Below, one piece after another: positions 2,223 through 55,183 of a stretch of 64,000 bases of DNA; position 1 is the stretch's first letter, and every line of letters starts with the position of its first letter. The notes under the pieces are model-generated. The model was not told where the DNA came from. It ran no database searches and was given only the letters and a program-made list of their open reading frames with translations. The translations under genes were made by a program, and so were the position numbers. Location: the IMG/VR virus record IMGVR_UViG_3300049460_000123, positions 1 to 64,000 of that record. One strand, written 5' to 3'. The stretch comes from a virus.

Positions 2223-2612
2223 GTTACCATTTAGTGCCCTAGTTACCATCCAGATACCATGCGTGGTATCCGTTGAAAACCACGCCCATCAACGGTTTCA
2301 GCCCCCTAGATACCAAGATACCTATATCTGAATAAATATATATATATAGAGGGGGGTGGGGGGTATGTGTGTCTTGTAATGTGTATGTAATGTGTGAGGG
2401 GTGTATGTATATATATATATTCCCGGAAAAAATGGTATCTGCGGTATCTTGGTAACTTCCCTTTAAAATCAATGACTTGCAAGATACCGTCAGTTACCAA
2501 TGGTATCGGCTACTCCGCACGGATACCAGTCAGATACCACCAAGATACCACGCTTGGTATCGGCTAGATCGTTGATTACAAAGAGAAAAGCAGACGCAGA
2601 TACCAAGATACC
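2223..2612. repeat. Iteron-like origin candidate A: 18 G(A/T)TACC hexamers in both orientations around a (TA)n/G-tract core, with an IHF site
   Basis: Hexamers counted by eye; AATCAATGACTTG at 2467-2479 fits WATCAANNNNTTR; non-coding; homologous to 54930-55183. Confidence 0.75.
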
Positions 2613-2682
2613 AAGAATCCCGCGTAGGGACACGCATGCGCGAGAATGTCCTAAATAGTGACAGACCGGGATCGATTGGTAC

Positions 2683-2700
2683 TAACTCAAAAAAGATTAT
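2683..2700. promoter_or_regulatory. 18-bp operator, degenerate (TAACTCAAAAAAGATTAT)
   Basis: Partial match, upstream of rightward early genes. Confidence 0.5.
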
Positions 2701-2735
2701 GCGCCACGGCGAATAACTGATAGACTCCGTCTCAC

Positions 2736-2753
2736 TTGCTCATTTCTGAGTAA
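2736..2753. promoter_or_regulatory. 18-bp operator (TTGCTCATTTCTGAGTAA)
   Basis: Near-perfect palindrome just upstream of 2770 gene. Confidence 0.75.
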
Positions 2754-2769
2754 TTCACGGGAGTCTGAC

Positions 2770-3147
2770 ATGACCGAAAACCAGGTAGTGGCCCGCTTCG
2801 AAGTGGTTGGCGTGAATGACGAGCGCGACACATGCGAGTGCTGCGGCCGCAAAAACCTGAAGCGGGTTGTGTGGATTCGCGACACGGAGACCGACGAGGT
2901 GAAGCACTTCGGCACCGTATGCGCGACGGCGCCCGCGAAAGGGTTTGACCTGGTCGTCGAGATCAAGGCCGCGATCGCCAAATTCGACAGCCTGAACAAG
3001 ATGCGTGTCTACCTGGCCGCAGCTCAATACCGCCGCGAAGGCGGGAAGTACGTACCGAACGGCCCGGGATCCTGGACCGCCGCAGACCGCCCGCATCTCG
3101 ATCGCTGCATCGCCGAATGGGCAAACCGCTCCGACTTCAACTATTGA
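2770..3147 (+). CDS. Hypothetical protein with zinc-ribbon (CECCGRKNLKR...FGTVC)
   Basis: ORF track; GGGAG RBS. Confidence 0.8.
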   Translation: MTENQVVARFEVVGVNDERDTCECCGRKNLKRVVWIRDTETDEVKHFGTVCATAPAKGFDLVVEIKAAIAKFDSLNKMRVYLAAAQYRREGGKYVPNGPGSWTAADRPHLDRCIAEWANRSDFNY

Positions 3148-3158
3148 GCGCCCATCCA

Positions 3159-3338
3159 ATGACCGCCCTCCGCCTGCAGCAACAGATCGCCCGCGCCCTG
3201 CTCGCCCGTGGCGTTTCTGGCGAGCTCATCCCCGTGCGCGCCGGCGAACTGCTCCTGGTTGTGGCGGACGTCACCCAGCTAGAGAAGGCGCACGCCGCGA
3301 TCGCCGCTTACCCCGAAGTCACCCTTATCACTGCCTGA
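3159..3338 (+). CDS. Hypothetical protein (59 aa)
   Basis: ATG at 3159 (MTALRLQQQ); stop coupled to next start (TGATG). Confidence 0.65.
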   Translation: MTALRLQQQIARALLARGVSGELIPVRAGELLLVVADVTQLEKAHAAIAAYPEVTLITA

Positions 3339-3631
3339 TGAACACGAACAGCATCCTCATCCGCGCCGACAAGAAAGCGATCGGCCCGGCACCCGGCCGC
3401 CGCCCGCGCCTCAGCAAGGGTTACAAGCTCCGCGACGAGGCGCCCCGCGCCCCCAGCGTGCACGTGCTACTGACCGATGCGCAGGTGCTCGAGTGCCGCA
3501 CGCGATTCGAACACGAGCGCGGATGGACGATGCAAACCCTCGCGATCGAGTACGGCACCTCGCGCGAATACATGCGCCGGCTGCTCGAGTACCAGACGCG
3601 ATCGAAACTGATCCCGAAACACCCGAAGTAA
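3338..3631 (+). CDS. Small HTH-like DNA-binding protein
   Basis: MNTNSIL...LTDAQVLECR...WTMQTLAIEYGTSREYMRRLL resembles an HTH. Confidence 0.6.
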   Translation: MNTNSILIRADKKAIGPAPGRRPRLSKGYKLRDEAPRAPSVHVLLTDAQVLECRTRFEHERGWTMQTLAIEYGTSREYMRRLLEYQTRSKLIPKHPK

Positions 3632-3652
3632 TCCACCACCAGGAGCACCGCA

Positions 3653-3745
3653 ATGTTTTCTACCGCAATTACCATCGGCCTCATCATCGGCACGTGTTTC
3701 GGAGCCGTCATCTCCGCCCTCCTCCGCGCCGGCGCCGGCAAGTGA
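3653..3745 (+). CDS. 30-aa single-TM membrane peptide
   Basis: Below ORF-track cutoff; AGGAG RBS; MFSTAITIGLIIGTCFGAVISALLRAGAGK. Confidence 0.6.
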   Translation: MFSTAITIGLIIGTCFGAVISALLRAGAGK

Positions 3746-3775
3746 GCGTGTGCGCGATCGGCACCACCGCTCACT

Positions 3776-3793
3776 AACCTCATTTTCGAGTAG
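3776..3793. promoter_or_regulatory. 18-bp operator, degenerate (AACCTCATTTTCGAGTAG)
   Basis: Partial match upstream of the exported protein gene. Confidence 0.45.
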
Positions 3794-3846
3794 CATTTGA
3801 CCCGACCCGCCACCGCGCGGGCGATAACCAATTCTCGAGAACAACC

Positions 3847-4434
3847 ATGAAAAAGACCGCCCTTATCCTCGTCGCCGCACTCATCGCCGCCCTGCCACTG
3901 TCCGCCAGCGCCGGCTACTACTACGACCCGCACCCGACGGAGACGCCCGACGGCGTGCTGTCGCCACAAGCGATGCAGCAAGCCCCCTCGATCAGAGCGA
4001 AGATCATCGCGCAGTACGGCGGAGCGGCAAAGCCCGTCTACACCGCACCGGCGAGCTCCGCCGACATCGCGGCAGCAGAAGCAGCGCAACGCGCGCACCA
4101 GGACGAGGAAGCGGCCGCGCCGCTCCGCACGCAATCCCTGCAGGATGCAATGGCCGAACGCGCGGCCGCCGCCGAGCACCGCCTCGACGGCTCGAAGCAG
4201 CAGATCCGCTATTGCGTCGCCCGGATCAACCAGGCCCGCGATGCGCTCAAGCGTGAGGACGAGATCGAGCGCGAGTCAGGCGTGCAGAATCTCAGGCTTC
4301 GCTATGACGCCGGCTCGCAAATTGCCTACTGCAATGGACAGATCGACGTCGCATTCCGCGAGTACCGCCAGCTCGGAGGCACCGCCCCGACCCGCGCCGC
4401 GCTCATAAAGCAACTGATTGCCGAGGCACAATGA
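3847..4434 (+). CDS. Exported protein with Sec signal peptide
   Basis: MKKTALILVAALIAALPLSASA; Cys pair in mature part. Confidence 0.8.
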   Translation: MKKTALILVAALIAALPLSASAGYYYDPHPTETPDGVLSPQAMQQAPSIRAKIIAQYGGAAKPVYTAPASSADIAAAEAAQRAHQDEEAAAPLRTQSLQDAMAERAAAAEHRLDGSKQQIRYCVARINQARDALKREDEIERESGVQNLRLRYDAGSQIAYCNGQIDVAFREYRQLGGTAPTRAALIKQLIAEAQ

Positions 4435-4646
4435 ACAACTGCGTAACCTGCGAACACGCGATCTGGCAGAAGACGCCGAGCGGCCGCATCAACTGGAAGA
4501 AAGCCGGCAAGTGCCGCGCCCCGATACCGGATCTGGCCGCCGTGCTACCCGCTTGCGTTCCGCCGCCGCCGGCAAGCAAGAATAGTATCTGGTCCGACAC
4601 CTGCACCAACTGCCCGACCTGGATCGAGAAGGAGACTACGCAATGA
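4431..4646 (+). CDS. Cys-rich hypothetical protein
   Basis: CVTC...CTNC; ATGA overlaps. Confidence 0.7.
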   Translation: MNNCVTCEHAIWQKTPSGRINWKKAGKCRAPIPDLAAVLPACVPPPPASKNSIWSDTCTNCPTWIEKETTQ

Positions 4647-5077
4647 CGCCACAGCAACGCGCGCAACTGCAGAACGAGGCGATCGACCGCGCCAACGCCT
4701 ATCTGTCGGCTGTCGGACTGCCTTCCTACACCGAGGCAATCACCACGCTATCCGATCTGCTCACATGGAGCGGCAACGCCCCCGACGTGCCGCCCGCGAC
4801 GATCGCAGCAGCTCACGAACTGATCGACCGCGCGAGTGGCTCGAGCCCTCCTCCGCTTTGGATGCAACGATTAGACCGCGTGTATCGCCCGGATCGCGAC
4901 CCGAAAGCCGTAGCGCTTGCGATCTCACCGATCTGCAAAATGGAAGACGTCACACCGGGCACGCACAGCCGCATCAAAGTGCCCGCCGACAAACTAGAAG
5001 CCGTGCGCAAAGCCGTCGAGCTCGTGCGCAGTCCCATTCACTACATCGAATACCTGCCCCTGGAGACCGACAAGTGA
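4643..5077 (+). CDS. Hypothetical protein
   Basis: ORF track; AAGGAG RBS. Confidence 0.75.
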   Translation: MTPQQRAQLQNEAIDRANAYLSAVGLPSYTEAITTLSDLLTWSGNAPDVPPATIAAAHELIDRASGSSPPPLWMQRLDRVYRPDRDPKAVALAISPICKMEDVTPGTHSRIKVPADKLEAVRKAVELVRSPIHYIEYLPLETDK

Positions 5078-5502
5078 CCCCGCACGTACAACGCGCGTGG
5101 GCTCGCCTCACCGCCGACATGAAAGACGGCGCGCACCAGTACGACCACTGGCAAGACGTGCCCAGGCGCGTGCAAGTCGCATACCTCGAGCTCATCGCGA
5201 AAGATGACGGCCAACTCACCGAACTCGCCGCGCGGGCCGCCGGCATCGACCTCATGCCAGATGGAGACGGCGCCGACGGATCCCGCTGGGTCGCGCAGCA
5301 CGTGCGCCTGCCCGACGGCCAATGCGTATGGAACCCGCTTCACAATGATGCGCACGCTTTCCGCCTGGCGGTGCAGCTTTCCCTACTCGATGGACTCGAG
5401 CGCCATGCCAGCGCGCTCGCCGCAGAATTCGACTACGACATGGACCCATACGCCGCGACCCGCCGCGCGATCGTCCGCGTGGCCGCAGCACTCGCCAGCT
5501 AA
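5074..5502 (+). CDS. Phage ABA-sandwich/NinX-like (DUF2591-like) protein
   Basis: GTGA overlap start; WNPLHNDAHAFRLAVQL...ATRRAIVRVAA motif. Confidence 0.65.
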   Translation: MTPHVQRAWARLTADMKDGAHQYDHWQDVPRRVQVAYLELIAKDDGQLTELAARAAGIDLMPDGDGADGSRWVAQHVRLPDGQCVWNPLHNDAHAFRLAVQLSLLDGLERHASALAAEFDYDMDPYAATRRAIVRVAAALAS

Positions 5503-5520
5503 CCCCGCCCCGCCCCATCC

Positions 5521-5546
5521 AACCCGGCCGCGTGCCGGGTTTTTTT
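5521..5546 (+). terminator. Intrinsic terminator
   Basis: AACCCGGC-loop-GCCGGGTT followed by T-run. Confidence 0.85.
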
Positions 5547-5558
5547 ACGCCCCGCGAC

Positions 5559-5624
5559 TTGCTCAAAAAAGATTAAAAAACCTTGCCACTTTGTACGCCT
5601 ACGCGCATAATCGTTTTTGAGTAA
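5559..5624 (+). promoter_or_regulatory. Sigma70 promoter TTGCCA(5583)-N17-CATAAT(5606) flanked by two 18-bp operators (5559-5576, 5607-5624)
   Basis: TTGCTCAAAAAAGATTAA and ATAATCGTTTTTGAGTAA; the second overlaps the -10. Confidence 0.7.
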
Positions 5625-5643
5625 CAACCCCGAGGCGTCCACC

Positions 5644-5781
5644 ATGTTGTTCCGCACGATCGAATACTTCGAAGCACGCGCATTCAGCCTGCGTCCCTTC
5701 TACCGATTCGACGTGCGTAGCCGCACGGGCCGCCTCATCGAATCGCATTGCGTCCGCCTCGACGACGTCGTCTGGTGCTAA
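5644..5781 (+). CDS. Small hypothetical protein (45 aa)
   Basis: Manual: MLFRTIEYFEARAFSLRPFYRFDVRSRTGRLIESHCVRLDDVVWC; GAGG RBS. Confidence 0.55.
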   Translation: MLFRTIEYFEARAFSLRPFYRFDVRSRTGRLIESHCVRLDDVVWC

Positions 5782-5791
5782 GGAGACCTGC

Positions 5792-5923
5792 ATGTACACC
5801 GTGAAATACCGCGAAGGTAAGCGTTTCATCATCGAGCACTACGACTTCGCCGCATGGCGCGACCACCGCGCCGCGCGCCTCATCATGCGTGGCATCGCCG
5901 TAACCCTTTCCAAAATCAAGTAA
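5792..5923 (+). CDS. Small hypothetical protein (43 aa)
   Basis: Manual: MYTVKYREGKRFIIEHYDF...; AAGGAG RBS; TAATG coupling to helicase. Confidence 0.65.
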   Translation: MYTVKYREGKRFIIEHYDFAAWRDHRAARLIMRGIAVTLSKIK

Positions 5924-8226
5924 TGAGCAAAGATATTCCAGGCAGCACAGTACCGAGACTCGTCGCGCGCCCGCACCAGGCCGAAGCAGTCGCCGCCGTC
6001 AAAGCCGAATTTGAGATTGCCGACCGCGCCACGCTCGTGATGTCGGTCGCATCCGGAAAGACTGCGACTGGCGTATGGACTGCAGAGGCAGTGATCGGCA
6101 CGCAGAAGCGTGCGGTCATTGTTTGCCTGTTCCCGTCGCTCACCCTGATCCGACAGACTATCCCGGTATGGATCCAGCAACAGAGCTGGGGAAAGCGTTT
6201 CCGGTTCATGGCCGTCTGCTCTGACACGTCAGTCATCGACGACGATATGAGCGCCGCCGACATGCCCTACCCGACCACGACGAGCATCGACGACATCGCG
6301 CGATTCATCGACAGCGGAGGGATCCGCGTTGTCTTCGCCACTTACCATTCGTCGGAAGCCGTCGCGGCCGCGCTGCGTGAAACTGGTATCACGTGCGCGC
6401 TGGCACTGTTCGACGAAGCACACAAAACTGCAGGATCGCCCGGCCGCACCTTTTCTGCCGCACTCGACGACGATGAATTCCCGTGCAGCAAGCGCCTTTT
6501 CATGACCGCGACGCCGCGCGTGACCAACCGCAAGAAGCGCGACAAGAACGGCGACGCACAGATCATCTCTATGGACGACGAGTCGATCTACGGTCGCGTC
6601 GCCTATCGCTTTTCGTTCCGCCAGGCCAAAGATAGCGGGATCATCTGCGGATACAAGGTGATCGTCTCGACCGTGACGACTGCCGAGCTCGGCGCAGCCC
6701 CCGGCGACGTGACAGTCAACGTCTCCGGCGAACAGCTCACGCTCGAGGACGCCGCCAGCCGCGTCGCACTGGCGCGCGCTATCGAGATGGTCGACGCTCG
6801 CAAAGCGATCACGTTTCACTCGACCGTCGCCGACGCGGCCCGTTTCGTTGGCAAGAACGGTATCGGCGCAATGCTCCCCGCATTCGAGACCTACCACGTC
6901 AACGGCAAGCAGACGACACAAGAGCGAGACGCCGCTATCGACAGCTTCGCAGCGTCCGAGCGTGGACTCGTCAGCAACGCCCGATGCCTCACCGAAGGCG
7001 TCGACATCCCGGCCGTCGACCTGGTCGGATTTATCAGCCGCAAGAAGTCGAAGGTAGACATCATCCAGGCGATCGGCCGGGCGATGCGCAAGCCGTACGG
7101 ATCCGATAAGGAAGTCGGTTATGTGCTCCTGCCGATCCTGCTCGACAGCGAGAAGGACGTCAAAGACGCAATGGCCGATGCAGACCTGTCCGTTATGTTC
7201 GACGTGCTCGCAGCACTGAAGGACGAGGACGAGGTTCTGTCCGAGGCGATCAAGAGCAGCGCCACCAAGAAGTCATCCAGCAAGCCTGCCGACCTTGGCG
7301 AATTCGTCGAGGTGCTCGGAGCATCAGTCGATATGGAGGCCGTGCACCGCGCCGTCGAGGTATCGATCGTGGATGAATTGGCGGAGTCGTTTGACTTCAA
7401 TATCGGAGTGTTGCGAAGTTTTGCGGAAAGAGAGGGACATGCGCGAGTTCCCACATTTCATGAGGAAAACGGAATTAATCTTGGAAGATGGATCAGCAAT
7501 CAACGAACTGCAAGAGACTGTCTTTCTACGGCTCGAATAAAATCACTTGAGGCCATTCCAGGCTGGTCTTGGAATGCATTTGATGGAAAATGGGAAGATG
7601 GATTCTATGCCCTTAAGTCATTTGCAGATCGAGAGGGACACGCAGTAGTGCCACAAAAACATATTGAGAATGGCATACAACTTGGAGTATGGGTCAGCAC
7701 TCAACGCGAAACAAATGAGAGCCTTCCTTTGTCACGTCGGCAAGCACTCGATACACTTCCGAAATGGACGTGGAATGCACTCGAAAGCAAATGGATGGAC
7801 GGATTCAATAATTTGAAGTTGTTTGTCGAGCGCGAAGGACACGCACGGGTGCCCGCAAAACATGTCGAGGGAAATATCAAGCTGGGGAGCTGGGTATCAC
7901 AAAACCGACAACGCCGCGCCAAATTAGGTCAAGATAAAAAATCGGCTCTGGAACAGCTTCCGGGGTGGACGTGGAGCCCTATAGATGATTTGTTTAACGT
8001 CGGATTAGATCACCTAAAGCGGTTTGTCAGTAGGAATGGTCACGCTAGAGTCCCGGAGCTGCATATTGAAGATAAATACAAGCTAGGAACTTGGGTATCA
8101 AACAGACGACATAACGTAGAAAAATTAACCCCAAAAAATCGCGCCGATCTGGAAGCGCTCCCGGGATGGGCTTGGACCATTGGCCGAGGCAATAACAATC
8201 CTACCCGTAAAAAGAAAACATCATGA
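5923..8226 (+). CDS. SF2 DEAH helicase with four C-terminal helicase-associated (HA) repeats
   Basis: ASGKT, DEAH, TATPR, EGVDIP, QAIGRAMR; four EGHARVP...LGxWxSxQR...W.W repeats; start re-called to 5923. Confidence 0.9.
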   Translation: MSKDIPGSTVPRLVARPHQAEAVAAVKAEFEIADRATLVMSVASGKTATGVWTAEAVIGTQKRAVIVCLFPSLTLIRQTIPVWIQQQSWGKRFRFMAVCSDTSVIDDDMSAADMPYPTTTSIDDIARFIDSGGIRVVFATYHSSEAVAAALRETGITCALALFDEAHKTAGSPGRTFSAALDDDEFPCSKRLFMTATPRVTNRKKRDKNGDAQIISMDDESIYGRVAYRFSFRQAKDSGIICGYKVIVSTVTTAELGAAPGDVTVNVSGEQLTLEDAASRVALARAIEMVDARKAITFHSTVADAARFVGKNGIGAMLPAFETYHVNGKQTTQERDAAIDSFAASERGLVSNARCLTEGVDIPAVDLVGFISRKKSKVDIIQAIGRAMRKPYGSDKEVGYVLLPILLDSEKDVKDAMADADLSVMFDVLAALKDEDEVLSEAIKSSATKKSSSKPADLGEFVEVLGASVDMEAVHRAVEVSIVDELAESFDFNIGVLRSFAEREGHARVPTFHEENGINLGRWISNQRTARDCLSTARIKSLEAIPGWSWNAFDGKWEDGFYALKSFADREGHAVVPQKHIENGIQLGVWVSTQRETNESLPLSRRQALDTLPKWTWNALESKWMDGFNNLKLFVEREGHARVPAKHVEGNIKLGSWVSQNRQRRAKLGQDKKSALEQLPGWTWSPIDDLFNVGLDHLKRFVSRNGHARVPELHIEDKYKLGTWVSNRRHNVEKLTPKNRADLEALPGWAWTIGRGNNNPTRKKKTS

Positions 8227-8777
8227 GCATGACAGTCACAAAAGAAACTCCGATGGAGCATTACAGCCTGCGCGGCGATCATAGCGTGTGGGCCACGATC
8301 GCCATGCGCGACTATGTGCGCGCCAACAATGCCGGCAACGAGCTGCACGGCGGCGAGATCCTGATCAACTCCGATTTTGGCGAGTACGCCTATTCGTGGG
8401 GAAACATGGGCTCCCCGCTGAAGCAGTTCCTTTGCCGCATCAGCCGCGACTACGTGATTGACAAACTCACGAACGGCAACGACACCGAATTCGACTTTGA
8501 CGCGTCGCTCGCGGCAGCGAAGAAGGAGATCCGGCGCATGCGAAAGTCCGGCGAGATCACCCGCGCCGCTGCACAGGATGCGATGGACGATCTCCCGTCC
8601 GACAACACGGACCAAGACAATTTCATCCGGCGCCTATGGGATAACGAGCTATTCGCCGACGGCGACCCGCCGACCTGGTTCGTATGCACCCGCGATCGCC
8701 CGCAGATCACCGGCTTTTACAAGTACGTCTGGACGCCGTTCGTCGAGCACCTGCGCACGGAGATTGCCAATGGCTAG
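8223..8777 (+). CDS. Hypothetical protein
   Basis: ORF track; overlaps neighbours. Confidence 0.75.
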   Translation: MSMTVTKETPMEHYSLRGDHSVWATIAMRDYVRANNAGNELHGGEILINSDFGEYAYSWGNMGSPLKQFLCRISRDYVIDKLTNGNDTEFDFDASLAAAKKEIRRMRKSGEITRAAAQDAMDDLPSDNTDQDNFIRRLWDNELFADGDPPTWFVCTRDRPQITGFYKYVWTPFVEHLRTEIANG

Positions 8778-9174: not shown

Positions 9175-9335
9175 GCAAACGTCGAATTCAGCGCCTCATC
9201 CAGCAGGACCGGATCCCCGGCGCCGAGCGCATAGGCCGCGACTGGATGGTCCCCGACGACTTCATCATTTTGCCGCCGGACAATCCGACGTCGCACTCCG
9301 GCCAGAAGATCCGCACTAAGACGCTGAAGGATTGA
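9132..9335 (+). CDS. Excisionase-like HTH (Xis/HTH_17) protein
   Basis: STEEAAKRHGVSKRRIQRLIQQDRIPGAERIGRDWMVP. Confidence 0.75.
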   Translation: MPISTEEAAKRHGVSKRRIQRLIQQDRIPGAERIGRDWMVPDDFIILPPDNPTSHSGQKIRTKTLKD

Positions 9336-13469: not shown

Positions 13470-16322
13470 TTAGAATTGCCCTTCCGTTTCCGAGTCGTCC
13501 GCCAGGATCGGCCCGAGCGGAATCGTGATGCACTTCGCCTGAATGCCGGCGAACTTCGCGGGTTTGTGCTCGTTGCGCGTGGCGCCCTTGATACGCAGCA
13601 GCGCGCCGCGCAGATCCGCCTCGAACGGTGTGCCGGACACCAGCGAGCGCAACTGTTCGGACTTGTTCGCGATCAGCAGCACCGTCTCACGTACCTTCAT
13701 GCCGTGACGACCGAGCAGCGCGTCGGCATCGCTTTTCGTGACTACGCCGACCTCCGGGCCGGCCGAAGCCTTGACGAGCTCGCCGACCGAGTAGCGTGCG
13801 CCCTGGTGTTGGATCAGCGCGGACATGAGCGTGCCGAGCGCACCTTGCGCCTCGTCCGTCTCGTTGTTCTCGCGATGCTCCGACCAGTCGAAACCCTCGA
13901 TCATCTCGTCAGCCTGCTCCGGCGTCGCCTCATCGCTGCACATCAGCGACCAGCAGCCGGCCAGCAGCGTGCCGTACTGATCGCCCTCGCGTTGCGATCC
14001 GAAACGCTTGGCCGCCACCGATGCGAACACCTCGATATTTTTCTGGATCACTGGCAGCATGTTGAGCGCACGGCGCATGAGGCGCGCGGCGATCGTCTCG
14101 TCGCTCTTGATCGTCACATACAGATCGTCCTTGAGCTTTTTCCAGCCGTCGGCCGCGTTATCATCCTCGCGCTTCGGACGCAGAGACATGACCGTCAGAC
14201 GCTCGACGTCGGCTTGATGCTTGATCGCGACCTGGATCGACGCCAGGCAGAACATTGAGCGGATATGGAACGACATGGCCTCACCGCCGGCCGTGCCCTT
14301 GAGCGTGCGCGCTTCAGATTCCGTCGACGCCTGGCGGATCAGAGACAGCACGTTCTGGATCCGGCGGATGTCGCCCTCCTCATTCGATTCAGACTCGTCG
14401 AACAGCACCGGACGCGCGTCGTTCTTGAGCCACTGGCGCACACCCGCCTCCGAGCTATTACCCTGAGCGAACAGCGACGAGCCATTCATCAACGGGAAAA
14501 CGTACTCGTTCAAGATACTGCTCTTGCCGCAGCCGGCGCCACCAGTCAACCAAATGTGCGGGCGCCAGCGCAGCGCGCCACAGATCGGCGCTAGCATCGC
14601 AAACCCGGCGAGCAGCGCGGCAGAACCCGGCATCGTCCAACGGAATTGCGTGGCGAGTTGGAACAGCTTGACGCCGTCCTCATCGCTCAGCGGATCCGCC
14701 GACGGCTCCGGCATCGCGATATCGATCCCGTAAGCGAAACGCGACTTGATGTCTTCCAGCTCCACAGATGCGCCGTCGACCGTCAGCCGGCCGCCGTGAT
14801 GGAACACGACGCGGCCCTCGTCGAGCCATGCGCCGCGTCCGCGCCGGCGGCTATTGTCGTAGACACCTTCGGCATAGCATGCGCGCATCATGAAATTCAG
14901 CGCCGCTTTGCCGTTGATCCCGCCCTGCTTGCCGTTATTGAAATGGGTTTCCCACCACATCAGCGGCGCAATGCCGAGCATGAACTTTTCGGTCAGCTCG
15001 CGCTCGTTGCGCTCCTTGACCTGCTTCGATTCGTTGTGGAAGAAGAAATATTTGTCTTCCTTGTAGCCGAGGCAGCGGAAATAACGATTGTCCGTCGGCA
15101 TGTCGACCTCGTCGTCGACGTGCGAGCTCGCCGGCGGATTCGAATCAACGGGCAGCATTCCCGGCAAGTAGTCCGGAGCGTCGAGCACATCCGCGCCCGG
15201 CATGTCTTCCCACGGCGGAACGTCGGCCGCGTTGACGGGCTCGCGCACCTCGACCGGCTCGACCACCGGCGCCGGCGGATTCAGCGTGTCAGCGATCGCG
15301 CTGCGCACCGCATCGGCACCCCCGAGCGTCATCAAGTCGTTAAAGTCGTTCGGCCCGCGAATCTTGCCATCAGGATTGGCGACACCCAGCGCCGCGTCGA
15401 ACGCCGGCAGCGCGATCAGCGCGCCGACCGCCTCGCGCACCTCGCGCGCACGCGTCAGACCGGGATTCTCGACCGGCTTGAGTGTCCACTGATCGTTGTC
15501 CGCGCACACGATAATCGTCGCGTCAGGAAATGCGCCGCGCATGAACTCTGCCACCGGAAGCAGGTTCGGCGCATCGAATGCGACGATTACGGCGTGCCCG
15601 GTTGCCTCGTGCAGCGTCGCGCCGGTCGCGTAGCCTTCACAGATCAGAATGACTGACTTGCCCTCGTGCTCGAGGGGTTTGCCGAACGAGAAGTAATGCC
15701 CGTGCTTGTTCGCGCCGCTCAGATAGTCCTTGTCGCGGCCGAGCTTCTTGCTGTCCGGCAGGATTGCCTGCAGCGAGTGAATGACCTTGCGCGACCAGAT
15801 CGGAATCAGCAGCGCATTATTCGAGATGAGCGACACCTCGCCCGTATCCTGATCGACCTTTTCCCACGTGCCGACGCGCAGACCATACGACTGAATGCCC
15901 TTGCGCTTCAGGTACGGATGATCGTCGCCCTCGATCGGCGCCGCCGCGTCCCAAATGCGATTCGCCAGCGCGGCGGCCTTCGCGTGCCGTTCTGCCGTCT
16001 CCGCCTCGCGCCGCGCGCGGTCCGCTTCCATCTTTTCGCGATAAGCGCGCTTTTCCTCCGCCGTCATCTGAGGACGGTCGACCTTCATCGCCCACGAGAA
16101 CGACGCGTCATGCCCATACTTGCCGTTGTGGCCGTACTTGCCGGCCGGGCGGTCGTCGACGTGCAGGACGTACCAGGCGTCTTTTACATTCTTGCCGTCG
16201 CCATCCGCATGAATTCGGTGCAGCTTTCCATCGGCGACAATATCCGCCGGATCGACGCGGATGTCCTGATTGAACATCGCATCGACGAATTCCTCGATTG
16301 CCTGCGTTTCATGCACCACCAC
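13470..16322 (-). CDS. DNA primase-helicase (TOPRIM plus P-loop ATPase; P4-alpha/TraC-like)
   Basis: HPYLKRKGI, CEGYATG, ADND, DFND; GGAGCGKS, LFDESE. Confidence 0.9.
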   Translation of the reverse strand: MVVHETQAIEEFVDAMFNQDIRVDPADIVADGKLHRIHADGDGKNVKDAWYVLHVDDRPAGKYGHNGKYGHDASFSWAMKVDRPQMTAEEKRAYREKMEADRARREAETAERHAKAAALANRIWDAAAPIEGDDHPYLKRKGIQSYGLRVGTWEKVDQDTGEVSLISNNALLIPIWSRKVIHSLQAILPDSKKLGRDKDYLSGANKHGHYFSFGKPLEHEGKSVILICEGYATGATLHEATGHAVIVAFDAPNLLPVAEFMRGAFPDATIIVCADNDQWTLKPVENPGLTRAREVREAVGALIALPAFDAALGVANPDGKIRGPNDFNDLMTLGGADAVRSAIADTLNPPAPVVEPVEVREPVNAADVPPWEDMPGADVLDAPDYLPGMLPVDSNPPASSHVDDEVDMPTDNRYFRCLGYKEDKYFFFHNESKQVKERNERELTEKFMLGIAPLMWWETHFNNGKQGGINGKAALNFMMRACYAEGVYDNSRRRGRGAWLDEGRVVFHHGGRLTVDGASVELEDIKSRFAYGIDIAMPEPSADPLSDEDGVKLFQLATQFRWTMPGSAALLAGFAMLAPICGALRWRPHIWLTGGAGCGKSSILNEYVFPLMNGSSLFAQGNSSEAGVRQWLKNDARPVLFDESESNEEGDIRRIQNVLSLIRQASTESEARTLKGTAGGEAMSFHIRSMFCLASIQVAIKHQADVERLTVMSLRPKREDDNAADGWKKLKDDLYVTIKSDETIAARLMRRALNMLPVIQKNIEVFASVAAKRFGSQREGDQYGTLLAGCWSLMCSDEATPEQADEMIEGFDWSEHRENNETDEAQGALGTLMSALIQHQGARYSVGELVKASAGPEVGVVTKSDADALLGRHGMKVRETVLLIANKSEQLRSLVSGTPFEADLRGALLRIKGATRNEHKPAKFAGIQAKCITIPLGPILADDSETEGQF

Positions 16323-23630: not shown

Positions 23631-24803
23631 ATGCCGAAACTCACAAAAAAAATCGTTGAAGACACCCAAACCACCGACAAAGACGTCTGGATCTGGTGCA
23701 GCGAATTGCCAGGATTCGGCATGCGAGTCCAGCCGAGCGGCCGCAAGACGTTCGTGACGCGTTACCGCACCGCCACCGGCACGCAGCGCAAGACGACGAT
23801 CGCCCGCTGCAGCGACGTCACCGCCGACAAGGCGCGCGAGCTCGCACGCAAGACGTTCTCCGCCGTCGCCGAGGGAAAGGATCCAGCCGCTGAAAAGCAC
23901 GCGCTGAAGAACGCGCCCACCGTCGACGAGCTGCGCGCGCGTTACATGCGCGAGCACGCCGCGCCGTTCAAGAAGTCCGGCAGCATTACGAACGACGAAA
24001 TGCTTTGGCGCCTGCACGTGATCCCGGCGCTTGGCAAGAAGCGCGTCGACGCCGTCACGCGCGCCGACATCCTCGCGATGCACGGCAGTCTCGCAGTCAA
24101 GCCCGCGACCGCAAACGCGTGCGTCGCCCTGCTCAGCAAAGCATTCAACCTCGCCGAATTGTGGGAGTGGCGCACCACCGCAAACCCATGCCGCCAGGTG
24201 AAGAAATTCAAGATCCGAGAGCGCGAGACCATCCTCACGCACGAGCAGATCGGCCGCCTCAATGAAACGCTCAACGACATGGCGGCAAAGGACGAGATCC
24301 CGCAATCAATGGCCGACCTCGTGCGCCTGCTCCTCATCACCGGATGCCGCCTGAACGAGATCATGAGCGCGCGCCAGTCCTGGGTCGATCGCAGCCGCAG
24401 CCTCCTCCTGCTTCCGGACAGCAAAGTCGGACAGCGCCGCATCGCCCTTTCCGCCGCCGCGATGGAGATCATCGACTCGATCCCGGCCGGCGAGTGGCTG
24501 ATCCCGGGCCGCAACGACCTCGAGCACCTGAAGCACCCGCACGGCATGTTCACGCGGATCAAGGCGCGCGCACAGCTCCCCGCCGATCTGCGGCCGCACG
24601 ACCTCCGCCACACAGCCGGATCACTGGCGCATATGGCGGGCCTCACGCAGAAGCAAGTCGCGACCATGCTGGGCCATCGCCAGATCGCCACGACGGCGCG
24701 CTACCTGCACGGATTCGCCGGCGACGACGCCCGATCAGTCAACATTGTCGGCAACGTCATATCGGCCAATTTCAAGCGGCCGCCGCAGCAAGTCGCAGCC
24801 TGA
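23631..24803 (+). CDS. int: Tyrosine integrase with arm-binding domain
   Basis: ELPGFGMRV arm domain; TGCRLNE, HDLRH, LGH, TARY. Confidence 0.95.
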   Translation: MPKLTKKIVEDTQTTDKDVWIWCSELPGFGMRVQPSGRKTFVTRYRTATGTQRKTTIARCSDVTADKARELARKTFSAVAEGKDPAAEKHALKNAPTVDELRARYMREHAAPFKKSGSITNDEMLWRLHVIPALGKKRVDAVTRADILAMHGSLAVKPATANACVALLSKAFNLAELWEWRTTANPCRQVKKFKIRERETILTHEQIGRLNETLNDMAAKDEIPQSMADLVRLLLITGCRLNEIMSARQSWVDRSRSLLLLPDSKVGQRRIALSAAAMEIIDSIPAGEWLIPGRNDLEHLKHPHGMFTRIKARAQLPADLRPHDLRHTAGSLAHMAGLTQKQVATMLGHRQIATTARYLHGFAGDDARSVNIVGNVISANFKRPPQQVAA

Positions 24804-48338: not shown

Positions 48339-48362
48339 ATTTACCTCGAGTTGCGCCTGAAA

Positions 48363-49924: not shown

Positions 49925-49931
49925 GAGATAA

Positions 49932-49947
49932 ATTCTCGTGTCACGAC
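49932..49947 (-). promoter_or_regulatory. GTCGTGAC-class promoter, leaderless (head operon)
   Basis: GTCGTGAC-AC-GAGAAT-N7-ATG(49924). Confidence 0.8.
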
Positions 49948-49988
49948 TTCAACCCACCGCATCACTTGATCGAAAAAAAGCAAGTCGG

Positions 49989-50018
49989 AAAAAGAAAAAG
50001 GCACCCGAAGGTGCCTTT
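49989..50018 (-). terminator. Intrinsic terminator
   Basis: AAAGGCACC-TTCG-GGTGCCTTT-TT (cUUCGg loop). Confidence 0.9.
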
Positions 50019-50036
50019 CATTGGAGAGGATGCTAG

Positions 50037-50297
50037 TTAGGATTGCCCGAGGTTCTCTTTTGCCTTGGCGATTACCTGGTGCAGCGTGCCGCGCTCATTG
50101 ATCAAATCCTGATACTTCGCGACCTCCTTCTCGTCGCCGGCGAGCGCCGCCGTGCGCGCGGGTTCGAGCTGGGCCTCGACGGCCTCGAGCCGATCCGTCG
50201 CCATCTTCAGAATTTTCCGCTCCATCGCATCGGTTTGATTCGCCATCGCGGCGAGCTCGCCCAAGTCGCCACGGACTTTATCGGGATTCGGTTTCAT
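50037..50297 (-). CDS. Hypothetical helical protein (86 aa)
   Basis: GGAGGAG RBS. Confidence 0.8.
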   Translation of the reverse strand: MKPNPDKVRGDLGELAAMANQTDAMERKILKMATDRLEAVEAQLEPARTAALAGDEKEVAKYQDLINERGTLHQVIAKAKENLGQS

Positions 50298-50338
50298 TGC
50301 GCTCCTCCGCGCGGTCTAGGTTATGGCGGACAGTATAA

Positions 50339-53300
50339 TCAAAAAAGATCATGTGTGTCAGATTGTTGCGCCGCTTGCCGCTGCTTCAGGAAGTACGCGA
50401 CGCCCGTGTCGTCGAGACCCTCGAGCGACGAGCTCATGAGATCCCGCATCCCGTATTTCTTTTCGAGGCGATCGCGCGCCCGCGTCTCCTCCGGATGGTT
50501 TGCCTGCATGTCGATCAGCTCGACATTGCGGGTTTGCCCGAGGCGATGGATCCGCGCATTACGCTGCGCATGCGTCTTCGCCGTCGCCGGGATGTCGTGC
50601 TGGATCAGGTACTCGCCTGATTGCAGGTTCATGCCGACGGCGCCGGCGTCCGACGCGATCAGGATGTCCGCTTGCGCTTCGCCCTTCTCAGGGTTGAACA
50701 TCGAACGCTTGCGATCCTTTTCCTTGGCGGTATCGCTACCCGTGATCGTCACCACGCGCTTACCCTGCTTTTCCAGCCGCTCACGGATAGCCTCGACCGC
50801 TGCGCGATTCCGCGCAAACACGACGCCCTGCTTGTTGCCGCGCGCCTGCACGAGATCCGCGATCCGGTTCACCTTGGCGTTATCCGGATGCGTATCAATG
50901 ATTCGCTGCATCGCGGACGACTTCATGATGCCGATGCTTTTTTGCAACGCCTCAGCGATTTTCTCGTGATCCGCCTCCGGCACGCCCTCGAACGACGACG
51001 GAGAGATAGCCTTGATCGCCGCGACGTCCACCTTGCCACGCATGCGCGCGATACGAGCGGCCGCCAGGTTCGACGACAGCGTGTCCATAGCCGTGCGCTG
51101 AGCCGGCGTCAGATCGACCGTCTCGCGCTTGCGCGACGCCTCGACGTCCGGCGTGATCTGTGCCGGAAACGTGTAGCGCGCCATCTCGCGTTTCAGGGCG
51201 TCTTTCGATGCCATCGTGTCAGCGCCATACCGGCGCATGAACGCGGCCCGGTCCTGATAGCGCTTAGGATCGAGCTTTTGCAGCATCGAATACACCTCCG
51301 ACGTGTCGTTCTTAAACCCCGACTCGCCCGACGCATAGGTGTAATACGGCGTGTGCGCGGACAGCGCGTCCGTCACGTTCGCCAACGTCGAATTCTCCTT
51401 GCCGGCGCGGTTGAGCGTGTCATGCGCCTCGTCGATGAACGACGCGTCGAAGTTGATCCCCTCCTTGTCCATGACGCCCTTGATCCACGCCTGGCGATCG
51501 TCCGGCGTCATCTTGCCGAGCTGCTCCGTCATCGCATTCTCATCGATGCCGGCGTGCGTGGCGCCGAGGTGCACCATGTCGCCCCGGAATGACTGGTGTG
51601 TCATCACGCAGATATGCGTGTCCGGATCCTTGTACGCCGCAATGCGCGACTCCTGCGACGCACCCGGCTCGATATGCCACTTGAATTTGCCGGGCTCGAG
51701 CAGGCGCAATGCCTCGCCGCTGAACTGCCCTTGCACGACGCTGGGCACCAGCATGACGCTGCGCTTGACCTTGCCGAGACCGTGCAGGTGCGCGAACCCG
51801 CCGAGCATGACGTTGGTCTTGCCGGATCCGGCGCCGAATGCCAGGCCGAGGCGCTTGTTCTCCGCCAGCATCTTGATCGCGCGCTGCTGATTCGCGTACT
51901 TGCCGTTCATCGACACGTTCCACATCTTTGTCGGCTTGCCGGGCTTGAAATTCTTTCCGACGATTCCCATCATGCCGGCGAGCTGGCGTTCCGCCTCGTG
52001 CCCGATCGTGTGCCGCTCGTCGCCGGCGAGCGCGCGCTCTTTCGGCTCCTCAGCGCCGCCGAACATATCCGGCTCGTCGCCCGCGAAGAATCCCATCTGG
52101 CTTTGTTCGAACGCCTCGCGCTGATCGCGCGCCGCGTCGAGCTTGTCGGAAACACTGCCCGACGCATACCGGCCGCCGGAGCGCTCGCGCAGACTATCCG
52201 TGAGCTCGCGCTCGCGTGCGCGGCGCGCGTCGCGCGCGGCATGGTCCGTCGCGTCCAGATGATTCAGATTGTTGCGCACGACTGCGCGGCCGATCTTGAG
52301 CGGGTTGCCCGGATTCAACTTGTTGTGCGCCTCCGCGAACGAGCGCGACACCTTCGACTTGATCAGATCCTGGACGGCCTCGTATGCCTTGGCATTGCCG
52401 CCCATCGTCTCGAGGTACTTGCCCCACGTCAGCGACGACGCATTGATCTTGCCCGCGAGCTCGTCGCGCTGCGACTTCCAATCCGTCCACTCAGGATTCT
52501 CCGTCGAGTCGCCGAACATATCGGTCGTCTCTTTCTCCGGCTCGTTCGCCGTCAGCCGCTCGAGATCCTGGCGCATCGCGCCGGCCTCCGGGCTTTCCTT
52601 GGCGACGTTCTTGTAGAAGTGCTCACGCAGCGCGGCCTGATCCTGATTCGTCAGATCGCCGATCTGCTTGTACGCCGCCGTCCCCTCCGGCGTCTCCGCC
52701 AGCGCGCGATGCAGCGCCTCGACGGACTTCTGGTCGACCGTGAACTTCTGCCGGTTCATCGGCGATCGCGTCGCGCCGTGCCGCGCCTCGACGAACTCGT
52801 CGGCATACTTGTCGAACGAGTCGCCCAGCTCCTCAGCGCGGCGCATGTTGCCGTCTTCGCCCTTGAGCGGCGCGACCGCGTCGAGCGCCGTGCGGTATTG
52901 CTCCGCGCTGGCCGCGCCGACCTGCTGGAAGAAGTCGCCCGACTGGATGTCCGCGACGATATCGCCCGGCGCATCGCCGTCAGCCGTGCGGCCGCCGATG
53001 TAGTCACGCAGCGATTGCTCGAGATCCTCGCCCGGCGCGAACGGTTCCGCAATGCGCGGCGCGACGCCCGGCTGAACGTTCATCGCGAGATCCGGCCGGT
53101 TTGCGACGCCCAGCGGGAGCCAGTCGTCCTCGTCCTGGCCGCCGGCGATGATGTCGAGGTTTCGCTTAACCTGCTCGATGTCCGCTCGATCGATCGGCTT
53201 TGCCAGCCGGTCCATGCCGGCGCCGTGCACCGTCAGGAACGTGTCGCCGCCGACATTCTCGATCTGGTAATCGCCGCGCTGCAGGCCAATGGCGCGCGCC

Positions 53301-54889
53301 TGGCGGATCGCATCCTCGACGCCAGTCTTGCCGAGCGACACCTCGAGCTTGTCCTTTTTGCCCTGCTTCAGCGCGACCGACAGCGCCGCGTTCGCCTCCA
53401 TCTCGCCGAGCGCCTGCCCGAGAATCTTTTGCGCCTCGCCGATCGCCTCGCGCCGCGTGCCGTTGAGCGCCTGCGCAGTTTGCATGTCCGCGCCGCTCGC
53501 CGCATCGCTGAGCTCGATCTCCTTCGCCGACTTCATCAGATCGCGCGCGCGGCCCATCGCGTCAGCGCTCGCCGTCATGTAGTGGTGCATGTGGAAATCC
53601 TGCACGCCCGCCTGAATCCGCTCGACGTCGTCCGGCATGTCGGTGTGGATCCGGCGCGCGAGCACCTGCGCAGCGCCGGCGATGCCGAGCACGTCGACGA
53701 CACTGCGATCGACCAACGCGGATCCGCTCACGGCCAGCGCCAGCGAATTCACGCTGTTGTACGCTCCCACGCCGATATGCTTGCCGAGCGTCTCGGACGG
53801 ATCGCCGCCGGCGACCTTGCCGACTTCGGACAGGAACGTCAGGGTTTGCGCCGTGCGCAAGTCCTGCTCGATATCCTTCGCGATTTTCTCGTCAGCGTCC
53901 GGATCTGCCGTGTACTCGAGCACGTAGGCTTTGGGCTCGACGGTCGACTTGTCGATCTCCGCCTTTGCCTGCTTCGCCTGCTCCTGGACCTTTTTGAGCG
54001 CCTTTTGCGCGCGCAGCAACTCGACCGCCTTTTGAGCGCTCGTCAGGGTTGCGTCCGGCACTGGCGCGACCGGCTCGCGAATGTTTTTGAGCTCCTCTCG
54101 CACCATGCGCGCAGTGTCGCCGCGCTTGATCGCCGCCTCGCGCTGGCTATCCGTCATCGTCGACAGTTTCGCCGCGCGCGCCTGATCTACCTCCGTGCGC
54201 AGTTCCTTTTCCGTCAGACCGGCTTTCTCGGCGCGGCCCTTGTAATCCTTCGCGTAGCCGAGTCCGTCGGACACCTGCGGCACCGGGTTCAAATCCTGAA
54301 CCGTGAGTGTGTCCGGATCATCCGTGTGCACCGGAATCTCGCCGATGCCGGCGTCCATGCGCGCCGCGCTATCCGTCACCAGCCGTTCACGCTGTAGCCC
54401 AACGGCGTCAGTCGCGCGTTTCAGGATCTCGCGATGATGCTGTGCCTCGAGCTTCTTGCGGGCCGCCGGAGACAGATCCTTATGCGCCTCCGCATCGAAC
54501 TCCGTTTCCTTCTTGTCCCAGCCGAGCGTGCTCGCGACCGTGTCGACGAACTCCTTCTCCGCTTTCTTCCGCTGCACCTGGATCGCCTCATGAGCCTTTT
54601 GCTTCGACTCATGGATCCCGGCCTCCTTGTCGGCCTTGACCTTGTCTTTGCGCGCCTTGGCCGCGTCAGCCTTCTTCGCCGCCGCTTCGGCCTTGTATTC
54701 CGACTCGTGCTTGACCGCGCGCAGGCGCAGGTGATTCATCGAGCCGCCAGCGCCGCCGATCACCGTCGAGCTTCCATCTGGATTCGGCTGGATCAGGATA
54801 GGCTGGCCCGTGCCGTCGCCGTGCGAGTGCACCGTGATCCATCTCGCGCCAGCGGGAATGGATGCTTTGAGGAGGAGAATTTTGCGCAT
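50339..54889 (-). CDS. Large polyvalent protein with C-terminal SNF2/SF2 helicase (DarB-helicase-like)
   Basis: GAGSGKT, DEAH, GMNLQ, QRNARIHR; start re-called to 54889 (MRKILLLKAS). Confidence 0.85.
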   Translation of the reverse strand: MRKILLLKASIPAGARWITVHSHGDGTGQPILIQPNPDGSSTVIGGAGGSMNHLRLRAVKHESEYKAEAAAKKADAAKARKDKVKADKEAGIHESKQKAHEAIQVQRKKAEKEFVDTVASTLGWDKKETEFDAEAHKDLSPAARKKLEAQHHREILKRATDAVGLQRERLVTDSAARMDAGIGEIPVHTDDPDTLTVQDLNPVPQVSDGLGYAKDYKGRAEKAGLTEKELRTEVDQARAAKLSTMTDSQREAAIKRGDTARMVREELKNIREPVAPVPDATLTSAQKAVELLRAQKALKKVQEQAKQAKAEIDKSTVEPKAYVLEYTADPDADEKIAKDIEQDLRTAQTLTFLSEVGKVAGGDPSETLGKHIGVGAYNSVNSLALAVSGSALVDRSVVDVLGIAGAAQVLARRIHTDMPDDVERIQAGVQDFHMHHYMTASADAMGRARDLMKSAKEIELSDAASGADMQTAQALNGTRREAIGEAQKILGQALGEMEANAALSVALKQGKKDKLEVSLGKTGVEDAIRQARAIGLQRGDYQIENVGGDTFLTVHGAGMDRLAKPIDRADIEQVKRNLDIIAGGQDEDDWLPLGVANRPDLAMNVQPGVAPRIAEPFAPGEDLEQSLRDYIGGRTADGDAPGDIVADIQSGDFFQQVGAASAEQYRTALDAVAPLKGEDGNMRRAEELGDSFDKYADEFVEARHGATRSPMNRQKFTVDQKSVEALHRALAETPEGTAAYKQIGDLTNQDQAALREHFYKNVAKESPEAGAMRQDLERLTANEPEKETTDMFGDSTENPEWTDWKSQRDELAGKINASSLTWGKYLETMGGNAKAYEAVQDLIKSKVSRSFAEAHNKLNPGNPLKIGRAVVRNNLNHLDATDHAARDARRARERELTDSLRERSGGRYASGSVSDKLDAARDQREAFEQSQMGFFAGDEPDMFGGAEEPKERALAGDERHTIGHEAERQLAGMMGIVGKNFKPGKPTKMWNVSMNGKYANQQRAIKMLAENKRLGLAFGAGSGKTNVMLGGFAHLHGLGKVKRSVMLVPSVVQGQFSGEALRLLEPGKFKWHIEPGASQESRIAAYKDPDTHICVMTHQSFRGDMVHLGATHAGIDENAMTEQLGKMTPDDRQAWIKGVMDKEGINFDASFIDEAHDTLNRAGKENSTLANVTDALSAHTPYYTYASGESGFKNDTSEVYSMLQKLDPKRYQDRAAFMRRYGADTMASKDALKREMARYTFPAQITPDVEASRKRETVDLTPAQRTAMDTLSSNLAAARIARMRGKVDVAAIKAISPSSFEGVPEADHEKIAEALQKSIGIMKSSAMQRIIDTHPDNAKVNRIADLVQARGNKQGVVFARNRAAVEAIRERLEKQGKRVVTITGSDTAKEKDRKRSMFNPEKGEAQADILIASDAGAVGMNLQSGEYLIQHDIPATAKTHAQRNARIHRLGQTRNVELIDMQANHPEETRARDRLEKKYGMRDLMSSSLEGLDDTGVAYFLKQRQAAQQSDTHDLF

Positions 54890-54896
54890 GACCATA

Positions 54897-54912
54897 ATTT
54901 TCTGGTCACGAC
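54897..54912 (-). promoter_or_regulatory. GTCGTGAC-class promoter, leaderless
   Basis: GTCGTGAC-CA-GAAAAT-N7-ATG(54889). Confidence 0.8.
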
Positions 54913-54929
54913 TTCCGGCCCGGCGCAGT

Positions 54930-55183
54930 GATACCTAGATACCACGCCGATACCATGCATGGTATCGGCTGGAATCCTTGCCTGATAAGGCTTTCAGCCC
55001 CCTAGATACTAAAATACCTATTTTTTAAGATAGATATATAGATAGAGAGGGGGGGATGTATAGGGGGGGATATGTGTATATATATCTGTATATGTCTTGC
55101 CGCAGGAATGGTATCTTGGTAAATTTGGTATCTTGCCTTTAGAATCAATTACTTAGCCGATACCACCGATACCATATGGTAAC
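54930..55183. repeat. Iteron-like origin candidate B, homologous to 2223-2612
   Basis: GATACCATGCATGGTATC, TTTCAGCCCCCTAGATAC, TA/G-tract core, IHF site AATCAATTACTTA at 55143-55155. Confidence 0.75.

Follow-up and report, generated by a model that had tools for sequence, protein, structure and literature searches.

Staphylococcus aureus pathogenicity island (SaPI)-type origins consist of penta- or hexanucleotide iterons, at least two per side and in opposed orientation, around an AT-rich centre located immediately downstream of rep, and these iterons are read by a winged-helix domain in the C-terminal domain (CTD) of the helicase (PMC9371898). The alpha protein of phage P4 combines, in this order, a primase, an SF3 helicase and a winged-helix domain (PMC2777425). 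Here we analysed a 64,000-nucleotide stretch of viral DNA (the window), which corresponds to bases 1-64000 of the 93,508-bp IMG/VR virus record IMGVR_UViG_3300049460_000123; G000 is that genome, and the other G and L labels (e.g. G009, L014) refer to the compared genomes or contigs and loci. The window carries two copies of an origin-like module, copy A (2223..2612) and copy B (54930..55183), both on the + strand, and the gene for a 950-aa primase-helicase (13470..16322, - strand), a protein with a Toprim domain, a Walker-A/SF3-type ATPase and a C-terminal winged-helix-like domain, which we propose as the reader of the hexamers found in the modules. Our results suggest that A and B are probably iteron origins, or initiator-binding loci, of this primase-helicase, with a SaPI/P4-like design.

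The likeness to the pri-rep-ori modules of the SaPIs and other phage-inducible chromosomal islands (SaPIbov1 Rep, SaPI1 Rep1, SaPI5 PriRep5), and to Cch of the staphylococcal cassette chromosome mec (SCCmec), is manifold. As in these systems, short opposed iterons surround an AT-rich centre; the initiator, a proposed one in the phage, is itself a helicase (primase-fused in SaPI5) with a C-terminal winged-helix reader, a domain that in the phage protein is weakly predicted by structural modelling; iteron specificity differs between close elements; and, in small-plasmid relatives of the phage module, the putative origin lies directly 3' of the gene. With P4 alpha, the phage protein shares the order DnaG/Toprim primase, SF3 helicase, C-terminal winged helix, the last being a weak structural prediction, and the phage, like P4, has two separated loci with the same iterons. 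What is distinctive, compared to the known SaPI/P4-type origins, is the detachment of the module from the gene, its strongly conserved IHF-type site, its tie to a gene for a Cys-rich protein and a recurrent second site at a fixed place. Moreover, unlike its SaPI counterparts, the phage module has G-tracts, and the phage protein has a Toprim primase and gives no Pfam DUF927 or HTH_56 signal, two families that are absent from both G000 and its relative G001.

Copy A, read directly from the sequence, opens with GTTACC half-sites at 2223 and 2242, followed by an 18-bp dyad at 2253-2270 (GATACCATGCGTGGTATC) and a GATACC pair at 2309-2322. The (TA)n/G-tract core occupies about 2323-2433 and is followed by three inverted hexamers (GGTATC, GGTATC and GGTAAC, starting at 2434, 2443 and 2451 and ending at 2456), an IHF-like site (2467-2479) and a GATACC/GTTACC/GGTATC group (2483-2507). 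Copy B has the same order and orientation and is shorter: GATACC at 54930 and 54938, an 18-bp dyad that is a perfect palindrome (54949-54966), the core (about 55019-55109), inverted hexamers starting at 55110, 55118 and 55127 and ending at 55132, an IHF-like site (55143-55155), and two GATACC plus GGTAAC (55159-55183). Note that the middle inverted hexamer of copy B is GGTAAA, not GGTAWC. The 18-mer TTTCAGCCCCCTAGATAC is common to both copies (2296-2313 and 54992-55009). The preliminary description of this DNA had claimed two homologous elements in the same orientation, and all the features it listed are found in the sequence. It had also assigned an extra arm to copy A. This arm exists, includes a second 18-bp dyad at 2544-2561 and is conserved in copy A of the relative G009; however, it spans 2522-2612, and so begins at 2522 instead of the proposed 2533.

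In a BLASTN comparison within the genome, 2238-2505 aligned to 54934-55181 on the same strand with 69% identity over about 265 bp (E 5e-22), and no third copy was found by BLASTN across the 93.5-kb record. The hexamer GATACC occurs 50 times in the window, compared to 15.8 +/- 3.8 in shuffled sequences, a threefold excess that 0/100 shuffles reached, and 22 of these 50 sites fall in the two modules (14 within 2253-2612 and 8 within 54930-55173). The 18-bp dyad GATACC-N6-GGTATC is present three times in the whole genome, twice in A and once in B. Similarly, the IHF consensus WATCAANNNNTTR has three matches in the 64 kb (0.47 expected), two of which occupy equivalent places in A and B. In both modules the hexamers, comprising 14 GATACC plus GTTACC variants in A and 8 plus variants in B, are found in both orientations on both sides of the (TA)n core. 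Thus, A and B show the arrangement typical of SaPI origins, where 6-12 iterons of 5-6 bp flank an AT-rich centre, two or more to a side and in opposed orientation. An Rfam search of the window found no family, over either copy or elsewhere.

Are both copies maintained by selection? When the copies of G000 and G009 (two genomes, four copies) were aligned, 50/72 hexamer columns were invariant, compared to 72/203 of the other columns (Fisher p 9e-7). This result supports the idea, already advanced in the preliminary description, that the hexamers are kept under stronger constraint than the spacers, as judged from the alignment. In the same four-way alignment, the B copies were 75% identical to each other, the A copies 66%, and A and B 59-66%. 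Since the extra right arm is common to both A copies, these identities indicate that the duplication is older than the split of G000 and G009 and that both copies were retained. Absence of copy B from close relatives had been put forward as grounds for abandoning the proposal; on the contrary, copy B is present in G009 and, nearly identical, in the close relative L009.

More distant relatives provided further examples. In the genome G014 (about 50% protein identity) the module is again present twice, and an alignment of 204 bp gives 72.5% identity between the copies (E 1e-20). One is beside the gene for a 174-aa protein that also adjoins copy A and the other between the orthologs of the two giant proteins that flank copy B; both carry the repeat set proper to G014. 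Thus, there are two loci with a matching hexamer in G000, G009 and, independently, G014, and this agreement of A and B within each two-copy genome is expected if one protein reads both. In G003, an element with GTAAC(C/G) repeats occupies the position of copy B, before the gene for the ortholog of the 1518-aa giant protein, while no element lies upstream of this ortholog in G001, G002 and G004. A single element was found in G001, G008, G012, G013, G016 (an incomplete record) and the cultured phage Mecenats66, which has no room for a B copy. These relatives indicate that the second copy is optional in the family and that a second locus is not generally required. They could also suggest that B is a decaying, non-functional duplicate of a true origin located at A, all the more as B is shorter, lacks the right arm, and five of these relatives (G001, G008, G012, G013 and Mecenats66) manage with one element. 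However, the higher B-B than A-A identity, the retention in B of all hexamers, the dyad and the IHF site, and the existence of B-position copies in G003 and, with matching lineage-specific repeats, in G014 make this explanation quite unlikely.

Next, we analysed the module in relatives gathered with three queries: the flanking proteins, the primase-helicase and the Cys-rich 174-aa protein. The primase-helicase search alone recovered 699 homologs at E <= 1e-5, roughly 100 of them on contigs longer than 80 kb, and the module was seen in more than 15 relatives encoding this Toprim-SF3 primase-helicase. Elements of the copy-A type lie beside the 174-aa gene in G009, G001, G008, G010, G012, G013, G014, G016 and Mecenats66, a set that includes a Paraburkholderia metagenome-assembled genome (MAG) contig (G009, 70-90% protein identity), a Steroidobacter MAG (G010), a cultured Morganella phage (Mecenats66) and two genomes about 50-60% identical to G000 (G001 and G008). 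The sole exception among the relatives with the 174-aa gene is L157, in which the ortholog has no upstream element. The layout is constant across relatives: hexamer arrays in two orientations, a (TA)n core and a motif, AATCAAnGACTTAG, that fits the IHF consensus. The hexamer itself changes, being GATACC in G000, G009 and L175, GTTACC in G001, AAAACC in G008, GAAACC in G010, GTAACC in L187, L188, L191 and L206, GTAACG in L194 and GTAACA in L179; further types occur. Elements syntenic with copy A and built on hexamers other than GATACC were seen in G001, G008, G010, G012-G016 and Mecenats66. A changing hexamer on a fixed layout suggests a protein-binding array whose reader rapidly changes its specificity.

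In support of a link with the primase-helicase family, a module of the same kind was located within 10 kb of primase-helicase homologs in a dozen IMG/VR contigs (less than 10 kb from the gene in L175, L179, L187, L188, L189, L191, L194 and L206). In L201 and L204 only 100-230 bp separate the module from the downstream gene, whereas in L018, whose protein is 30% identical, the module precedes the gene by 2.3 kb. Moreover, an 8.2-kb Arsenophonus plasmid has period-11 GTAATG arrays around an AT-rich core immediately 3' of its helicase homolog, which is the only replication-type gene annotated in this plasmid; no terminase is annotated. A 19-kb Atlantibacter plasmid likewise has an array directly 3' of the homologous gene. 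The Arsenophonus nasoniae 8-kb plasmids of this type are linear and encode a protelomerase as well as a homolog of the helicase-CTD part of the phage protein; the gene for this homolog is followed by the GTAATG arrays (L253, NZ_CP123558.1, 3170-3460), which are likely an unannotated origin.

Searches were also made with the DNA itself. Copy A, used as a DNA query, matched nothing in the phage collection, and the exact 18-bp dyad was present at 8 loci in IMG/VR, of which L009 and L014 are true relatives and the others look like chance occurrences. A triple-GATACCA pattern search returned mostly coding tandem repeats; of interest were L056 (2050-2480) and L099 (6770-7030), in which GATACC/GGTATG or GGTATCGGCT arrays with helical-turn spacing surround an AT core with G/C-tracts.

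If the hexamer is read by a protein of the phage, that protein should follow the hexamer when it changes. The relatives G001 and G008 offered a suitable comparison, as their DNA can be aligned at 82-92% identity along almost the entire genome, yet their syntenic elements carry GTTACC and AAAACC, respectively. We considered as readers the 174-aa protein, a 96-aa Cys-rich protein, a VRR-NUC-like 149-aa protein, an 84-aa helix-turn-helix (HTH) protein and the small terminase (TerS), and rejected them since they are unchanged across this swap: the 174-aa protein has only 7 substitutions, scattered and for the most part conservative, the 96-aa protein is 98% identical, and no essential change is seen in the single-stranded DNA-binding protein (SSB), in the 84-aa HTH protein or in the HTH of the TerS-like one. 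The primase-helicase, in turn, is 86-87% identical overall (87% outside the wing), while a 20-residue predicted beta-hairpin wing (residues 908-927 in G000, ATRNEHKPAKFAGIQAKCIT, encoded at 13542..13601 on the - strand) is 65% identical. Conversely, among the three GATACC phages the wing is 75-85% identical, compared to 66-81% for the rest of the protein. The wing sequence thus tracks the hexamer type in two contrasts, and this covariation, suggestive although not proof, points to the primase-helicase as the reader.

The architecture of the primase-helicase is compatible with this role. Pfam Toprim_3 matches residues 225-336, the Walker A motif is GGAGCGKS, and the relative L018 matches RNA_helicase/SF3 weakly. 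As in P4 alpha, a Toprim/DnaG primase, an SF3 ATPase and a putative DNA-binding CTD are found in one chain, the assignment of the CTD being structural and weak. An AlphaFold2 model of the last 129 residues had a predicted local distance difference test (pLDDT) score of 83 (83-84 for the CTD models), and its list of fold matches (VIA) is dominated by winged-helix domains, all with weak Z values below 8. Against residues 452-556 of SaPIbov1 Rep, the CTD gave Z 4.4 over 90 aa, with a root-mean-square deviation of 3.7, and the values for Cch and PriRep1 were Z 3.8 and Z 3.2, respectively. With a longer CTD model, the top Foldseek matches were SaPIbov1 Rep and Cch. A profile search of PDB sequences with the primase-helicase alignment returned P-loop noise only and did not find P4 alpha (1KA8).

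The proposal that A and B are origin elements of the 950-aa primase-helicase, which the preliminary description had also made, is thus supported by the comparisons: the module travels with the protein family, lies 3' of the gene in minimal plasmids, and changes its hexamer without a change in TerS or the other candidate DNA-binding proteins, and copy B recurs in relatives with the hexamer of A in every two-copy genome. Several observations weigh against it. The matches of the CTD fold are weak (Z 3.2-5.0, Foldseek E 0.06 at best), and no sequence match to the CTD was found in Pfam or the PDB. The correlation of wing and hexamer involves few lineages, and four GTAACC phages have three wing sequences. 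As had been stated for copy B, which sits amid cargo genes, the modules are distant from the gene: whereas SaPI origins adjoin rep, the distance to the 3' end of the primase-helicase gene is 10.9 kb for A and 38.6 kb for B, and the putative phage origin is duplicated. GC skew, which had been suggested as a check, showed neither an inflection nor a turning point of the cumulative curve at either copy in G000 and G001, and was uninformative. In addition, the 5-kb contig L014 (48% GC) has a clearly homologous GATACC element, with the same dyad and the same CAACGGnTTCAGC spacer, directly 3' of a Cch-like DUF927+HTH_56 helicase that is unlike the 950-aa protein; neither BLASTP nor hhalign found similarity between this helicase and the 950-aa protein or its CTD. 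This case shows that helicases of more than one family can apparently serve a GATACC element, or that the element has passed from one family to another, and is compatible with an origin because the element is positioned after a replicative helicase gene. Finally, the experimentally mapped headful start of Mecenats66 (base 1 of OL614104.1; PMC9503643) is about 0.5 kb from its homologous element.

This last finding raises the possibility that A and B are pac recognition regions, in which the hexamers and IHF would recruit the terminase to cut nearby. Clusters of short repeats flanking a centre, together with an IHF site, do recall P1 pac and lambda cosB. Furthermore, a small cluster of GGTATC and GATACC directly precedes the TerS-like gene of G000 (genome 88150-88195). 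However, the cut site of Mecenats66 falls outside the element, in the last codons of the 174-aa ortholog (ORF123) and 29 kb from the terminase gene, and G009 has not kept the cluster that precedes terS. In P1 pac and lambda cosB the reader is terminase, and both sites are within the terminase genes or next to them; A and B are at least 8 kb from terS, and the phage hexamer does not co-vary with TerS, whose HTH is the same in G001 and G008 despite their different hexamers. Moreover, an 8-kb plasmid for which no terminase is annotated has the module 3' of its helicase gene, and two pac sites 40-53 kb apart would be odd on a 93-kb genome packaged by headful. We consider a pac function unlikely, although the mapped end of Mecenats66 makes it worth attention. 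As a separate observation, the cluster at 88150-88195 (L008) reads GGTATC-N5-GGTATC-N6-GATACC-GAGTATC and overlaps a GTCGTGAT motif.

The position of the modules next to gene starts was also evaluated, since A and B could be operator or enhancer arrays at which a phage regulator, bound to the GATACC dyads with the help of IHF, switches the adjacent operons. Copy A sits in a divergent intergenic region, the B and L014 elements end 35-60 bp upstream of a leftward gene, the 18-bp dyads resemble the operators of dimeric proteins, and IHF-assisted promoters are common. Nevertheless, scans for sigma-70 promoters and terminators gave nothing above shuffled sequences in either region. Outside the elements, a conserved GTCGTGAC-type motif and a TTACTCA-like operator accompany the neighbouring genes; the 174-aa gene, for example, has a GTCGTGAC motif of its own and, at about 1968-1997, an operator-like dyad. 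Because the flanking genes have motifs of their own, a promoter or operator function is improbable. In line with this, G001, G002 and G004 express the 1518-aa ortholog without such an upstream element, none of the candidate regulators follows the changes of the hexamer (between G001 and G008, the small HTH proteins stay the same), and the AT core between the opposed arrays would have no role.

We also asked how the modules relate to plasmid maintenance, as G000 is a myovirus-like, Paraburkholderia-type temperate phage-plasmid with a circular 93.5-kb genome; the ends of the 93,508-bp record carry a 127-bp repeat, which indicates that the assembly is circular. Beyond the window, G000 encodes ParA, a small partner protein, a Rep_3 initiator, TerL and the TerS-like protein of 219 aa. 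The Rep_3 gene lies at genome 78128-79066, and the CAATTGGGAGG repeats that belong to it at about 77990-78170. GATACC is absent from this repeat region, so that A and B do not qualify as a Rep_3-type plasmid origin, in which direct repeats of about 22 bp adjoin the Rep_3 gene and are bound by the WH1/WH2 domains of its product. Thus, G000 already possesses a classical plasmid origin, one without GATACC, and the existence of a separate Rep_3/ParA replicon with different iterons indicates that the GATACC elements are not that plasmid origin. The whole maintenance block (genome 76.0-79.1 kb; L007 12000-15100) comprises ParA, the 121-aa partner, 4-5 CAATTGGGAGG-type repeats and the Rep_3 initiator, and GTACATAGG-type repeats lie on either side of a phrog_874 gene upstream of parA.

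Could A and B instead serve the plasmid prophage as centromeres for partition or as sites of copy control, as in N15 or by incA-type handcuffing? Dispersed centromeres are known in N15, and P1 parS consists of hexamer boxes around an IHF site. G000 is a phage-plasmid with ParA and a small partner protein, and the two sites are almost opposite each other on the circle. However, it is a different repeat, GTACATAGG, that flanks parA, and in lytic-type phages and in small plasmids the module goes together with the primase-helicase. The whole ParA/Rep_3 block is missing in G009, G001 and G008, in which the element is retained. A partition role is, for this reason, very unlikely.

Taken together, the sequence comparisons favour a model in which the primase-helicase would form a replicon separate from the Rep_3/ParA replicon at 77-79 kb of the genome. 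The C-terminal winged-helix-like domain would read the opposed G(A/T)TACC hexamers that flank the (TA)n core, and the conserved AATCAAnnACTTR site would be where host IHF bends the right arm. On each side, the SF3 helicase could then assemble as a hexamer and melt the core, and the Toprim domain would prime synthesis. Copy A would be the ancestral site, beside the 174-aa gene, and copy B an old duplicate kept under the same specificity.

What, then, would copy B do? Our guess, to which we assign about half of the probability, is that it fires as an independent second origin; alternatively, by analogy with P4 crr, it may be a helper in cis or a copy-control site. In P4, about 4.5 kb separate ori from crr, a block of repeats without an unwinding core of its own. 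The phage loci, in contrast, are 40-53 kb apart, and B, which repeats the module in full and includes a core and an IHF site, looks more like a duplicated origin than like crr. It is also conceivable, though doubtful, that the primase-helicase bridges A and B over 40-53 kb, so that a single iteron code, rewritten in each lineage, couples initiation, copy control and the start of packaging. If true, the bridged A-B pair would represent a large-scale version of the P4 ori-crr looping with a link to packaging.

We could find no description of a replication origin for the widespread group to which G000 belongs, myoviruses and phage-plasmids of 86-98 kb; the hosts of its cultured members are Bordetella, Morganella, Aeromonas, Pseudomonas, Yersinia and E. 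coli. The cultured Mecenats66 and vB_BbrM_PHB04-type phages share with G000 the primase-helicase (39-51% identity), the structural genes and the 174-aa gene; Mecenats66 has the homologous element beside the latter, at about 85.1-85.7 kb of OL614104.1, and differs in having one element. The phrase 'origin of replication' does not occur in the text of the Mecenats66 paper (PMC9503643). The natural swaps of specificity, in which the same scaffold carries another hexamer and the candidate reader is a short wing, could show how self-loading SF3 primase-helicases read DNA. In addition, the recurrence of B at a fixed place in the cargo cassette raises the question of whether these phages have two origins, or one origin and a distant helper.

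Regarding the genes next to copy A, those for the 174-aa Cys-rich protein (1430..1954, - strand) and the 96-aa zinc-ribbon protein (1146..1436, - strand) are co-linear; in nearly every relative checked, both adjoin the copy-A-type element and point away from it, and neither protein received a Pfam, PHROG or Atlas name. The 174-aa protein has three CxxC motifs and conserved NAKG and ELIxAALRD, and a GTCGTGA motif, adjoined by a TTACTC-type dyad, is found upstream of its gene at 1990-1997. In the rest of the window, the replication block (12-23 kb) encodes the 950-aa Toprim protein, SSB, a helicase, a nuclease and annealing-type proteins; it is followed by the integrase gene (23631-24803) and by tail, head and protease genes (28-50 kb).

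Finally, copy B sits between the genes for two giant, presumably ejected, polyvalent proteins, one of 1518 aa and helicase type (50339-54895) and the other of 1660 aa and methyltransferase/LPD1 type (55259-60241). This pair (50339-60241) resembles a split version of the DarB-type ejected cargo of P1, with a helicase part and a methyltransferase/LPD1 part. The methyltransferase protein of G001 and G002 is far larger, with no more than distant similarity. Just upstream of the start of the 1518-aa gene, at 54905-54913, lies a motif (GGTCACGAC on the + strand, GTCGTGACC on the - strand), similar to the GTCGTGA upstream of the 174-aa gene, that is kept in place in 4/4 relatives checked (L132, L134, L135 and L136), even without copy B. 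On the other side of B, between a terminator-like hairpin and the stop codon of the 1660-aa gene, a G/C-tract block (55219-55258; GGGGGGGTACCCCCCCC, then CAGGGGGGGAGGGG) is shared with the close relative L009.

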